Virus record (IMG/VR): IMGVR_UViG_2537562231_000026 | Location: 1-8,871 of that record | DNA length: 8,871 bases | Source of the DNA: a virus | Lineage: Duplodnaviria > Heunggongvirae > Uroviricota > Caudoviricetes | Strand: one strand, 5' to 3' | Part shown: positions 3,001 to 8,871 of the stretch, one piece after another | Position numbering within the stretch: the stretch's first letter is position 1 | How the letters are laid out: every line of letters starts with the position of its first letter | Made by a program: the position numbers

Positions 3001-6000
3001 CGGGAATCCTTCCACCAACAGAATGACGCTGTACTGACCGTACTCAACGTCCATGCTGTAACGACCGGCTTCATCCGGATTTTCAGAGGCCACCGTGTTC
3101 ACCACCACCGTGCTGCTGGTCCGTCTGGCTTTCAGTTGAATGGTGCAGTTCTCTACCGGTTTTCCTGTGCCGTCTTTCAGCACACCTGAAATCTTTACTG
3201 CCATATTCACCCCACAAAAAAGCCCGCCTGAATCGGCGGGCTGTCATAACACTGTGTTACCTGGCTAATCAGAATTTATAGCCAACACCCACGATGAACC
3301 CGTCAGTGCGCCAGTCGCCACTGCCGGAGCCTTCATAAGCAATATCAATGGCCACGGATTCGGTCGGGTTAAACTGCACGCCAGCCCCCCACGCCAGAGA
3401 CGTGTTGCTGTGGCGACCGTCATCACTTCCGGTCAGCACATCGTGCGTTTTCCCCTTGTTGTCAGTTACGCGAAGATAATCCCCGGAGAAAGTCGACACA
3501 CGGCTGTAAGCCACTCCCGCCATCGCATACGCGCTGAACCATTCATTCACGCGCACAGACGGCCCCGCCATTACGCTGAACCAGCGGTTACGCACGGAAT
3601 CTTCATGCCAGCGGGTATCGCTGTAACGGGTAATCTGGCGATTCCTGTCTCCTGCATAGCTGAATGACGTCACCAGCCCCAGCGTGTCCGTGAATTCATA
3701 ACGGTATTTCACGTTAATCCCGTTAAGATTATCGCTACCGGGAGCGTTCGTCCGGGCATGAAGATACCCCGCGCTCAGCGTGGCCTGCTGCTCAGACGCC
3801 CATGCAGGCGCACCGGATACGGTCAGACAAATGGCTGCGGACAAAATGGCGGCATAAAGTTTACGCATAATTACCTCTCGCTTTTCTGCAATAAAAAAGG
3901 CGTCATTCCTGACGCCCTTTTATTGGGGTTATAAATATTTCAACGAATACTGATGCCGGAAGCAGCTTTTTTGGTCACAATCACCGTACAGTCGGTGATA
4001 TTGCCTGCCCCCTGATTGCCTTTCTGGAAAATCTAAAACTCCAGAGTGACGCTACCACCACCACTAGGCATATCAATAACTGCACTGTAACTACCGGGAA
4101 TGGCCCCTTTAGTTTCTCTGGATGCGATTAATACGCCGTTTTTGCGAACTTCAAAACCATAACCCGTGTATCGCGTGCCTCCTGGGTTATTTCCGCTCCC
4201 CGGATCGTCATACGCTATACCGTTAAAAATAATGGGCGGAATAATAATCTGGCGGTCAAAGTTATGATCATCGCTGATGGTGACTGTAACCGTACCGTTT
4301 GGTGTTTCCGTGTTACCCCACGTACCGACTTTTTTCGGGAAGGCTTTTGATACAGCTTTAACGAAATCTCCTCTGACCTGGGTCGCCTCCAGCATGCCCT
4401 TAATCGTACAGTTCTGGTTAATCGTGACATTGTTGAGCGTTCCTGAGTTCGCATTCACACTGCCACTGATATCCGCATTTTTCGCCGTCAGTCTCCCGTC
4501 TGATGTCAGGGAAAATGCCGGAGGATTACCGCCGCTGGTAATGGTGGGAGCCGTCAGATATTTCAGGAACACTTCATTCATGAATATCTGATCGCCCTGA
4601 CCAACAAACATCGGCTTTGTGTTGCCATTCGCAGGATTAATCATCGCAATCCTGTCTGCTGCCAGCAGCACCTGACTCTGCATGCCGTCGGGGGTGTTCT
4701 CATACCGGCACCGATACCCGCAATATAAAGGCGTCCGTCCTGCATCTGCTGCAGCTTCACTGCCCACATGCTGTTCAGGTTATTATTTGTATCAACCTGA
4801 ACCTTCTGTATCTGCTGGATCGCTGCACTCTGGTCTTCCAGTTTCTTATTGACGGTCTGTGTTATTTCATTGCTGACATCCGTTATGGACGTCCTGATTT
4901 CAGTCAGGTCAGGCGCAAGCTGACCGTTATCAATCTGCGTCCACAGCTCCTGAGCCAGATGGGTTTTCCCTATCTCGCCTTTGAAAAAATCCAGATAGCC
5001 GGATGCATCATCACTCGGCTGACCAACAGCCTCCACGAATGCCGATTTGCCAACGGTGTTCACACTGCGGATATAAAAGTAATAATCATGGCCCGGTTTG
5101 ATATTGATACTGGCGGCTATCCAGTACAGCCCCGTGCCAAGGTAGCGGGCTGTGGTTTCAACCTGCCTGATATCGGTAATCCGCGTTTCCGAAAACCAGA
5201 ACTCAAACTGTACCGTCGGGTCATACACCGCAAGACGCGGGACCGCTGTTATCTGAAAATAGCCCGGTGTCAGTTCAATCGTGGCGGGTACCGCAGGTGC
5301 ATTAATCCTGAACGTGGTGGTGGCCGGTTCCCCCTGCTGGCCATAACTGTTAATTGCCCTGACTGTCAGGGTGTATTCCCCGAGCGGCAGACCACTGAAA
5401 CGATGCTCTGTATCCGCAGTGATGGCGGTAGTCACCAGACGGCTGTCCTGACCGCTTCCACTGGTCAGGCGCAGACTGAAGCGCACGCCCTTCACCACCC
5501 GCGGCGTGTCCCATTTCGCCTGTGCCAGATACTGACCGTCAGCCGCGCTCACCTCCACCGTCAGGTGCTGCACTGCCGGTCGGAATAACGCTGTTCAGGG
5601 TGCCTGACTGCGGCTCAAAGCTGGCCCCGTTATCCACGATGGCTCTTTTTCCGGTACGTGCTGCACCGCCGTGATGGCAAAGGTGCCGTCCGTGTTTTCC
5701 CGGATGGAGACACAGCGGAACAGGCGACGACGCAGTGACGGCAGGGAGAGTCCCCACACCCCGTATGTCTCCACACCATCCGGCAGGGTGCTGACCTGTA
5801 TCCGGTCAGGCGCGGGGTGTGCGGTGATGGCCACGCTCGCCGGCTTACCGCTGCCGTTAATCAGATTAACAGTGGCCGTGCCGGTCTCCGGCAGTGTCAC
5901 CTCCCGGTCCAGCGTCAGGGTACGGCTGGCGGCATCGATGGACAGGACACGTCCGCCGGTCATGGTCCCGGCATAGTCGTTATCACAGATTTCAATGATG

Positions 6001-8871
6001 TCACCGGGTGTGTGACGCAGCCCCTGTGACCCGAGCGTGAAATCCACCGTCTGCGTTTCCAGCAGTTCGGTCTTTATCACCCACAGCCCGGCACGGTGGG
6101 CCTGACCGCGACTGGTGCAGCCGAACGCATCCATCTTCAGCAGGTTGCGCCGTAGCGCAGTATGGCTTCCGGGTCTTCCACCAGTTCCGTGGAGGTCTGC
6201 CAGCCATTCTGCGGGTCGGTGTAATTCACCTCCACCGCCGTGTGGCGGTCCTTCAGGGCGCTGAAGCTGTAGCGAAACCCCACGCCGTTATCATCCACCA
6301 CCACATCGCAGTTGGTGTACGGCCACACCACATCCGACGGGCGGTCCTGAACGAACGTCAGCGTCTGGCCGTTCCATACCGGCATACAGCGCATCGCCGA
6401 GCAGAAATCACTGAGAACGTCCCACGCCTTACGCTGTTGTGACAGGTACGCATTAAAGGTCATCCGCGGCTCTGTGCCCCCGAAACCATCCGGGACCGTC
6501 TGGTCGCAGTACTGCGCAATGGCATACAGCGCCCATTTGTCCACGTCTGCCGCCCCCAGACGTTTTCCCATGCCGTAGCGCGGGTGAGTCAGCATGTCCC
6601 ACAGGCACCAGGCCGGGTTGTTGCTGTATGCCGGTTTCAGACTGCCGTCCCAGATACCACTGTACGTGCGTTTTTCCGGGTCATAGTTTGACGGCACCTG
6701 AATAATGCGACCGCGGATATGGTAGTTCACCGTCATCTGCTGGCCGCCGAACTGCTCCGCATCCACCTGCAGCCCCACAATGGCCGTGTTCGGGTAGCAC
6801 TGTTTCACATCGATGATTTCGGTGTATGACGACCAGAGCGTCTTATTCTGCAGCTGGTCCGGGGTGCTGTCCGCTGTCTCCCGGACCATCCGGATGTTAA
6901 AGGGCCGCTCAGGCAGATTCTCCAGAATCACCGACGCCAGGTACTGTGAGGTGGTCTTGCCGTTAATGGTGACATCCTTTTCCGTCACCCAGTTACCGTT
7001 ACGCTGCAACTGAATCAGCAGTCGGACAGAAGAGGGATTACGGTCGCCCTTTGAGGTGGTCTCCAACAGTGACTGCACCCCGAAGGTGACCCGCAGGCGG
7101 TCAATGTTCGCGGACGTAATGGTGCGCGTCACCGGCTTTGCCTTCGTCACTTCCACGCCCAGTGCGGTTTCAGCTCCGGAAGACTCAAAGCCTTCAGGTG
7201 GTGTCTGTTCCTGCTCCCCGGCGCGCCAGACCGCTGTCACACCATGTATCACAGGATTACCGTCCGTGTCCGTCAGCGGGGTTTTGTTCACCAGGATACT
7301 CTGCAGCCCCTTCACCGGACCTTCAATCGGCCCTTCACCAATGGCATCAATCACGCTCATCATCTGCGTGGACTTAAGATTGTCCTTTACCTCAACCGGC
7401 GTGTGCGCCCTGCCGCCACCTTTACCCATAATGTTCCTCTCAATTGGTATTATTAATCGCAGTGATAGGATATTGCACAGCTATTGCGCGATATCATCAG
7501 AACGCTGTTTGTTACCCTGTAACCAGCAAGCTCAGTCTGTTAACGGAATTAATGAGGGTTTTATGAAATGTAAAATCATTGCTGCCATTGCCATGCTGAC
7601 AGCAGCATCATGCGGATACGCAGCAGAACAGGAAGTCCCAATGAACCTTGTCAGTGCTGACGGAAAAGAAGTCAGCATTGGAAAAATAACCATTCAGGAG
7701 ACCCCCTACGGTCTGCTGTTCACACCAGCCCTTCACTCTCTGTCTGAAGGCATTCATGGTTTTCATGTGCACGAAAAAGGAAATTGCGCCCCGGCACTGA
7801 AAGACGGAAAACCGGTCGCAGCATTATCGGCTGGCGGTCACTTTGACCCGAAAAACACCGGCAAACATCTTGGCCCCTGGTCTCCGGATGGACACCTGGG
7901 CGACCTCCCTGCGCTGTTCGTGACGCATGACGGAAAAGCGAACTACCCGGTCCTGGCCCCGAGACTGAACTCATTAAAAGAGATTAAAGGGCGTTCTCTC
8001 ATGCTTCATGCTGGCGGTGATAACCATCATGACCATCCGGAGCCCCTGGGCGGTGGTGGTGCGAGAATGGCCTGCGGCATCATTCAATAATCAGTCAGGT
8101 AAGGGGCGGGCCCCTTACCTTTATTCCTCAGGACGATAAATCCTTTCTCCCTGAAAAGAACGGCACATCCGTAACCGGCTCATTTAAACCGTCTGGTCTG
8201 TTTCCTCCGGCTCTACAAAAATAATGTCCATCATTTTTAATGGACACTATCGTATGAAACACCGGACCTGGATCACTGAAGCTTTACGTCTTCACTTTGA
8301 AGAACATTTACCCCGGGTTGTGGCCGGGCGTCGCCTGAGTGTACCAAAATCAACAGTTTGTAGTATGTTCGTGCGCTTTCGGAGAGCTGGCCTTTCGTGG
8401 CCTTTGCCCGCAGGCATGTCGGAGCAGGAACTTGATGCCTGCCTTTACGGACAATTTTCCACGGTACCAGTCGTACGTCCTGAAAGCACCGTTATATCCG
8501 AAGCCCCCGTGGTAAAAAAACGTCCCCGGCGGCCCAACTTCCCTTATGAGTTTAAAATCGCCTTAGTGGAGCAGTCACTACAGCCCGGAGCCTGTGTGGC
8601 GCAGATCGCCCGGGAAAACGGAATCAACGATAACCTGCTCTTCAACTGGCGCCATCAATACCGGAAAGGTGGCCTGCTGCCTTCCGGAAAAAATATGCCG
8701 GCACTGCTTCCCGTGACGTTAACGCCGGAGCCGGATAATAAAATCCCGGCTCCGGCACAGGAACCAGAGCAGATAAATACACCGTCCGACAGTCTGTGTT
8801 GTGAGCTGGTTCTGCCGGCCGGAACTCTCAGGCTTAAAGGTAAACTGACGCCGGCGTTATACAGACACTTA

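Follow-up and report, generated by a model that had tools for sequence, protein, structure and literature searches.

Five private lesions in the tail-tip gene J of an Escherichia coli 3431 prophage: draft-assembly errors or a recent pseudogene

The final 8,871 nucleotides (nt) of contig ADUM01000109.1 from the draft genome of Escherichia coli 3431 (GCA_000184765.2), held in IMG/VR as record IMGVR_UViG_2537562231_000026 and called the window below, contain a prophage copy of gene J, the tail-tip and host-specificity gene of lambdoid phages, that is interrupted in the assembly by four one-base insertions or deletions (indels) and a premature TAG. This J is an ordinary lambdoid prophage gene of the 1,163-codon class and lies in the usual order, (I)-sodC-J-lom-stf-nleB, in the E. 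coli 3431 prophage that adjoins potB. Our reading, which we hold to be somewhat better than an even bet, is that the four frameshifts are base-calling or consensus errors in this single draft assembly of 2010; the TAG may or may not be real. The anatomy of the lesions, their uniqueness, the indel-dominated spectrum of private changes and the clean flanks were read directly from the DNA, and it is the technical cause that we infer.

Alignment to an intact allele bears out the earlier note on this DNA, which was written from the sequence alone, in describing J as colinear but broken in frame. The minus strand of 3869-7500 is colinear with the intact gpJ gene of O157:H7 F8798 (WP_171877611.1, 1,163 amino acids (aa)) at 97.3% DNA identity, and with the gpJ of a close relative, 24AR0142 (1,157 aa), as a second reference, only four one-base indels were seen in the window. 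Their number, coordinates and signs are those that the note had given, and all match the alignment to intact alleles (6150-6151, 5644, 5581 and 4702); a TGA at 6137-6139 and another at 5595-5597, between the −1/+1 pair, were also found as claimed. The extent of the gene needed correction, however. The note had ended J at 4033 (4033-7429), whereas the gene extends over 3940-7429, and the TAG at 4033-4035 is a fifth lesion that had been missed. Repair of the four indels had been taken to restore the whole gene at the length of lambda J; in fact repair gives 1,132 sense codons followed by the TAG (4035-4033), and intact alleles continue for 31 codons to TGA 3942-3940. Because the TAG is a missed lesion, and because the extra length of this class over lambda J lies in the middle of the protein, the agreement with the 1,132 codons of lambda J is coincidental. 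The list below gives the gene and its lesions in window coordinates, read on the minus strand.

3940..7429, minus strand: J tail-tip/host-specificity gene of the 1,163-codon class, from ATG 7429-7427 to the true stop TGA 3942-3940, colinear to intact gpJ of 1,163-1,165 aa.
6150..6151, minus strand: lesion 1, a one-base deletion in the context CTAC-GGG-CGC, by which a Gly codon (GGG, GGA, GGT or GGC elsewhere) becomes GG; TGA 6137-6139 follows.
5643..5645, minus strand: lesion 2, a one-base deletion in the context AAAAAG-AA-GCC that leaves an A at 5644, so that GAAGCC or GAGGCC elsewhere becomes GAGCC; TGA 5595-5597 follows.
5581, minus strand: lesion 3, an inserted G (CC^ACC to CCGACC) in no homopolymer, which would restore the frame lost at lesion 2 yet lies past TGA 5595-5597.
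4702, minus strand: lesion 4, a one-base deletion (GGT-ATT-GAG to ATGAG); TGA 4641-4643 follows.
4033..4035, minus strand: lesion 5, a premature TAG in place of the AAG of intact alleles (TTTAAG to TTTTAG), by which the last 31 codons of the receptor-binding domain are lost.
3940..4032, minus strand: 93 nt made up of 30 sense codons and the true TGA, still in the same frame as the TAG and unchanged from intact alleles.

As assembled, J is not a single open reading frame (ORF) but, with its four frameshifts and premature TAG, a set of ORF fragments of 430, 179, 310 and 244 aa, the first of which, from the N-terminus, is entered in GenBank as EFU96654.1 ("host specificity J domain protein"). After repair to 1,163 aa, the translation matched six gpJ Pfam families above their gathering thresholds (FNIII-A_GpJ, Phage-tail_3, Ig_J, Ig_J_second, Phage_Tail_Tip and Ig_GpJ_C), and the four called fragments were matched by the same gpJ families. 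The TAG falls within the C-terminal receptor-binding domain (Ig_GpJ_C, residues 1027-1162). The earlier note had proposed comparing the repaired translation with lambda J, and the two proteins aligned end to end (phmmer against PDB 8iyk_J: E = 0, 1,741 bits, query 1-833 and 864-1162). Residues 1-835 of the lambda tip attachment protein (1,132 aa; PDB 8iyk, 8k35 and 8xcg) match 1-833 of the repaired protein and residues 838-1131 match 864-1162; the Pfam architecture is shared, and in both phages the gene lies upstream of lom and stf. Unlike lambda J, proteins of the window class are 1,163 aa long, the ~30 additional residues lying near 834-863, and have a divergent C-terminal receptor-binding region, and the window copy as assembled is split by the frameshifts and the TAG. 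Closer counterparts are the intact gpJ of O157:H7 and O55:H7 prophages (WP_171877611.1; sodC-J-lom-stf prophages, e.g., that of ATCC 43894), which share the sodC-J-lom-stf order of the window. The O157:H7 protein differs from the repaired window J by only 21 amino acids, and the C-terminal 1.5 kb of the genes are 99-100% identical. These intact alleles are uninterrupted, in contrast to the window allele, which is a fine mosaic of several alleles with five private lesions.

The lesions appear to be restricted to this assembly. Short BLAST queries spanning each lesion were run against 5,426 complete E. coli genomes, in which J is multi-copy (a median of three places per genome) and in which each query met 2,800-7,000 matching J places; no J place matched at 100% across any lesion, and lesion 1 was found at 0 of 5,996 places. 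The best matches to these queries differed by little else. Those to 6092-6212 had one gap and one private single-nucleotide polymorphism (SNP), synonymous and beside lesion 1; those to 5530-5700 had two gaps (lesions 2 and 3) and nothing else; those to 4643-4763 had a single gap (lesion 4); and those to 3940-4100, among 2,811 places, had a single mismatch (lesion 5). In an allele panel of 15 sequences from E. coli genomes and 120 from IMG/VR, 107-135 other alleles were aligned at the four indel sites and 36 at the TAG site; all were free of the indels and of the TAG, respectively. An exact-protein index of 153 billion gene positions held all four J fragments in the E. coli 3431 assembly only. 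Comparison of the locus with other isolates, also proposed in the earlier note, gave the same picture, in that relatives and other assemblies were without any of the lesions.

Lesion k-mers were also sought in IMG/VR, in JGI metagenomes and in GTDB representative genomes, each lesion in at least one of the three collections and none in all three. The k-mer of lesion 1 was absent from IMG/VR and from GTDB representative genomes, the 29-mer of lesion 3 from IMG/VR and metagenome contigs, lesion 4 from GTDB representative genomes, and lesion 5 from metagenome contigs. The exception was the 28-mer of lesion 2, which occurs in three isolate-derived IMG/VR contigs (UViGs 2534681657_000006, 2537561686_000004 and 2529292832_000022). 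The J genes of these contigs are 77-85% identical to that of the window and have 59-110 run-length gap openings, with GG to G or CC to C every few dozen bases. The same loss (GAGG to GAG) in the same 28-mer, and the same kind of one-base run-length change, is thus seen in three unrelated, error-riddled isolate contigs, from which the lesion 2 change is known to arise technically. They differ from the window in having errors throughout, as opposed to only four or five in J with clean flanks. That lesions were not reproduced in independent data or in relatives counts in favour of an artefact, and it is still compatible with a strain-private pseudogene. As a separate observation, the three UViGs are apparently low-quality flow-sequenced assemblies in a public viral collection.

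The spectrum of private changes speaks for error rather than decay. Private bases were sought with the 15-allele panel and then with targeted BLASTs. The panel yielded 14 candidate private substitutions, 10 of which were traced to other alleles: alleles of IAI39, CE10 and other strains match a patch of eight changes at 5808-5904 with 100% identity, and the substitutions at 4503 and 4369 are present in other alleles. Those at 7389 and 7208 are present in strain Z1323HEC0393. Two private ordinary substitutions were left, at 6206 and 5430, both of them synonymous C>T changes, and a search for close relatives of the allele by way of 6206T and 5430T found none. The private changes in the 3,490 nt of J are therefore four indels, one nonsense, two synonymous and zero missense, so that five of seven are gene-breaking. 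Under the neutral spectrum that we assumed for E. coli in line with mutation-accumulation work (roughly 9% indels and 4% nonsense), the probability of at least five disruptive changes in seven is p = 6e-4, or p = 3e-3 when one founding lesion is allowed. Neutral decay would leave mostly missense changes and about ten substitutions per indel, and neither was found in J; because five lesions' worth of drift should leave tens of substitutions, most of them missense, neutral decay is disfavoured. The spectrum is very unlike neutral decay and fits run-length miscalls. Four of the five lesions can be expressed as changes in run length (GGG>GG, AA>A, TT>T and T3A2>T4A1), and three of the indels are run shortenings (3>2, 2>1 and 2>1). 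The earlier note had set every site at a short run; this holds for those three indel sites, but not for the inserted G at 5581, which lies outside any run.

The J indels would thus probably have been produced by run-length miscalls on a flow-based (454-type) platform, and the living strain probably carries an uninterrupted J, or at most a J with the TAG. The draft series that includes E. coli 3431 was presumably made by 454 pyrosequencing. Because J is present in several copies, a second technical route is the merging of reads from paralogous J genes, in which the merged sequence either loses a polymorphic base or retains both alleles. Merging reproduces GG from GGG/GGA and GAGCC from GAAGCC/GAGGCC, for which alleles with identical flanks exist; alleles with matching flanks were not found for the CCG required at 5581 or the ATV required at 4702, the TAG is left unexplained, and indels that coincide with polymorphic positions are expected at ~10% by chance. 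Paralogue merging is therefore compatible with only two of the five sites and is otherwise unsupported.

Several observations weigh against a technical origin. All 43 homopolymers of at least 4 nt in J are correct, including 13 of 5-6 nt, and the indels are at 2-3-nt runs and at one non-run site; such accuracy in the longer runs is unusual for flow errors at the consensus level, except where local coverage was very low. The A>T change at 4035 is formally a substitution. The errors would also have to be confined to J. Window positions 458-3907 (lom, stf, tfa and nleB) are 100% identical to 24AR0142 and Z1323HEC0010, and 7425-8170 (sodC) is 100% identical to 24AR0142, so that 4,196 nt are perfect against relatives, and the 3-kb espK-potA stretch differs by SNPs and a single 3-nt indel only. 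The sole one-base indel outside J in 12.7 kb is an AA>A deletion at ~8860-8861, as compared with the ISCro1 copies of relatives; it lies 11 nt from the contig end and is probably a matter of low quality there, and as a further run-length change it counts for the technical reading. With four of five one-base indels in J, the probability under uniform error is p ~0.02, or 0.006 when the contig-end indel is left out, and the density of errors in J was not matched in the 9.2 kb of flanks, which had one other one-base indel. The one J-only error mechanism that we tried, paralogue merging, falls short as described. Lastly, relaxed selection on J is plausible, given an element of the IS66 insertion sequence (IS) family between J and the tail operon. 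The earlier note had remarked that intact neighbours (lom, stf, nleB and sodC; we would add tfa) are unusual under uniform error; their intactness was confirmed and the point is valid (p ~0.006-0.02). Because this clustering is not strong enough to offset the spectrum argument (p ~0.0006-0.003), we favour artefact over decay. The choice that the note had left, between a pseudogene and a platform or assembly error, still names the only serious options, with the balance now tipped toward error by the spectrum of private changes.

J has a history separate from that of its flanks. Differences from the closest relatives start at J codon 2 (7424) and end just past the stop (3908), with identical sequence on both sides; J is ~91% identical to the J of 24AR0142 and Z1323HEC0010, the C-terminal half of J resembles that of O157 (99-100%), and the ends of the ORF are the breakpoints. 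Because J diverges between identical flanks with breakpoints at the ORF ends, we conclude that the J cassette was exchanged by recombination, as commonly happens to this gene for host range. Internally the tract is finely mosaic, with many 100-nt stretches identical to different alleles. If the private changes are real, such a separate history would account for their restriction to J, but not for their spectrum.

The chief alternative, to which we give perhaps one chance in three, is that J is a genuine and very recent pseudogene, in which relaxed selection after the recombination and the IS66 insertion allowed three −1 indels, one +1 indel and one nonsense change to arise through slippage at short runs, leaving the tail tip dead in the living strain. 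The confinement of the lesions to J within 9.2 kb of otherwise clean sequence and the separate history of the J tract speak for this account, as do the TAG, a base substitution atypical of flow sequencing, and the correct long homopolymers. An IS66-family element separates sodC-J from I, K and L, and the same IS lies inside J of a dog isolate (described below). This element cuts J off from the tail genes in the lineage, yet relatives with the same arrangement keep J intact. Frameshifted gpJ genes are known in finished genomes (PV15-279, ECpv15279_RS29950; 2013C-4974, C6998_RS09490), and these belong to the same family, are prophage-borne and are broken in frame; each has a single lesion, however, as compared with five in the window J that come without accompanying substitutions. 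The decay account also has to accommodate five disruptive changes with two synonymous and zero missense (the p values of 6e-4 to 3e-3 given above), and a background at each lesion that is otherwise identical to intact alleles, bar the one private synonymous change beside lesion 1. No lesion is common to any other assembly, relative or metagenome searched, apart from the lesion 2 28-mer in the error-riddled UViGs, and once the first frameshift was present there would be no selection for four further lesions.

Real lesions might instead have been introduced together, by error-prone and frameshift-biased synthesis of the DNA polymerase IV (Pol IV) type during the recombination that imported the J cassette. 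Pol IV is biased towards −1 frameshifts, and three of the four indels are −1 changes in short runs with few substitutions; moreover, the private changes fall within 7389-4033, matching the recombinant tract (~7424-3908), and none lie outside it. We nonetheless regard this as very improbable: to place four or five errors in a single 3.5-kb tract, synthesis would have to be extremely inaccurate and its errors to evade mismatch repair, the fine mosaic points to several old exchanges rather than one event, and a technical artefact explains the pattern equally. Still less credible, to the point that we give it almost no weight, is that the frameshifts are functional, through programmed ribosomal frameshifting or through fragments such as the 430-aa N-terminal piece that serve as separate proteins. 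Only the length of the ORF fragments speaks for it. More than 100 homologous alleles are in a single open frame at all four sites, the shifts include both −1 and +1 changes with intervening stops, and no fragment occurs in any other assembly. Given shifts that homologues do not share and sites that lack any slippery heptamer, programmed frameshifting and functional split genes are effectively excluded.

Both of the serious readings are already known in kind, since decayed tail genes are familiar from defective lambdoid prophages and run-length frameshifts from old drafts, and neither calls for a new kind of element. If the lesions are real, they would add one more defective prophage that has lost its tail-tip protein, in what may be an atypical enteropathogenic E. 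coli (EPEC) strain; this is a common prophage fate, with consequences limited to the ability of that prophage to form infectious particles. If they are artefacts, as we favour, multi-fragment "host specificity J domain protein" entries in old drafts should not be counted as pseudogenes. Were mutagenesis during recombination the true cause, J would hold a natural genomic footprint of recombination-associated mutagenesis. In any case the method can be reused, because comparing the spectrum of private changes (indel, nonsense, missense and synonymous) with a large pool of intact alleles partly separates decay from error when reads are not at hand.

On the minus strand of the window lie nleB, a tail-fibre C-terminal gene, stf, lom and J, and sodC is on the plus strand. 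The features other than J are as follows.

7563..8090, plus strand: sodC, Cu/Zn superoxide dismutase of 175 aa, an intact cargo gene upstream of J.
3269..3868, minus strand: lom, Ail/Lom outer-membrane protein, intact.
1891..3204, minus strand: stf, side tail fibre of 437 aa, intact.
1620..1889, minus strand: tail-fibre C-terminal gene (tfa), 89 aa, intact.
463..1443, minus strand: nleB-family type III effector of 326 aa, intact; the exact protein is found on 538 contigs.
8171..8871, plus strand: left end of an IS66-family (ISCro1-like) element, within which the contig terminates.
1..457, minus strand: end of an IS3-family (IS2-like) element, which is inserted close to nleB on its downstream side and is absent from relatives.

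The same prophage adjoins potB in related complete genomes, where the order is espK-nleB-tfa-stf-lom-J-sodC-(ISCro1)-I-K-L-M-H and on to the terminase genes, with the ISCro1-like IS66 element between sodC-J and the tail genes I, K and L. In O157 prophages sodC lies between I and J on the opposite strand, with no IS there. J thus has the position expected from lambdoid tail-module order, as I-(IS66)-sodC-J-lom-stf-tfa in relatives and sodC-J-lom-stf-tfa-nleB in the window. Strain 3431-4/86, an atypical EPEC of serotype O8:H-, is mentioned in the literature and may or may not be the same as E. coli 3431 (PMC3408504). A literature search on the accession and strain found no sequencing details for E. 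coli 3431.

In the dog isolate, E. coli 19KM2326N (NZ_CP151038.1, 3317363-3343762), J is interrupted by the same ISCro1; further genes of its prophage (nleB, stf, K, a tail protein gene and FI) are annotated as frameshifted, which could be real decay or long-read assembly error. The ISCro1-like element of the window follows sodC at the place where tail gene I would be expected. Its junction is 43 nt nearer to sodC than in 24AR0142, and those 43 nt (locus L006, 15331-15373) are phage sequence that is present in O157; the shift suggests either that the element was inserted independently or that a deletion took place next to it. The IS2-like element has 1,331 nt and a 5-bp target duplication, and its end is 5 nt past the nleB stop codon (locus L003, 8415-9744). 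An error in this element was considered and rejected, because its 409-aa fused product is the normal programmed-frameshift annotation and its 1,331 nt with the 5-bp duplication are canonical. A mechanically called 344-aa ORF at 7056-8090 on the plus strand lengthens sodC spuriously on its upstream side, where it runs across the beginning of J on the opposite strand. In stf, the region around ~2000-2750 is a long collagen-like Gly-X-Y repeat; its local G+C content is 63-65%, and its other frames contain long ORFs that are spurious.

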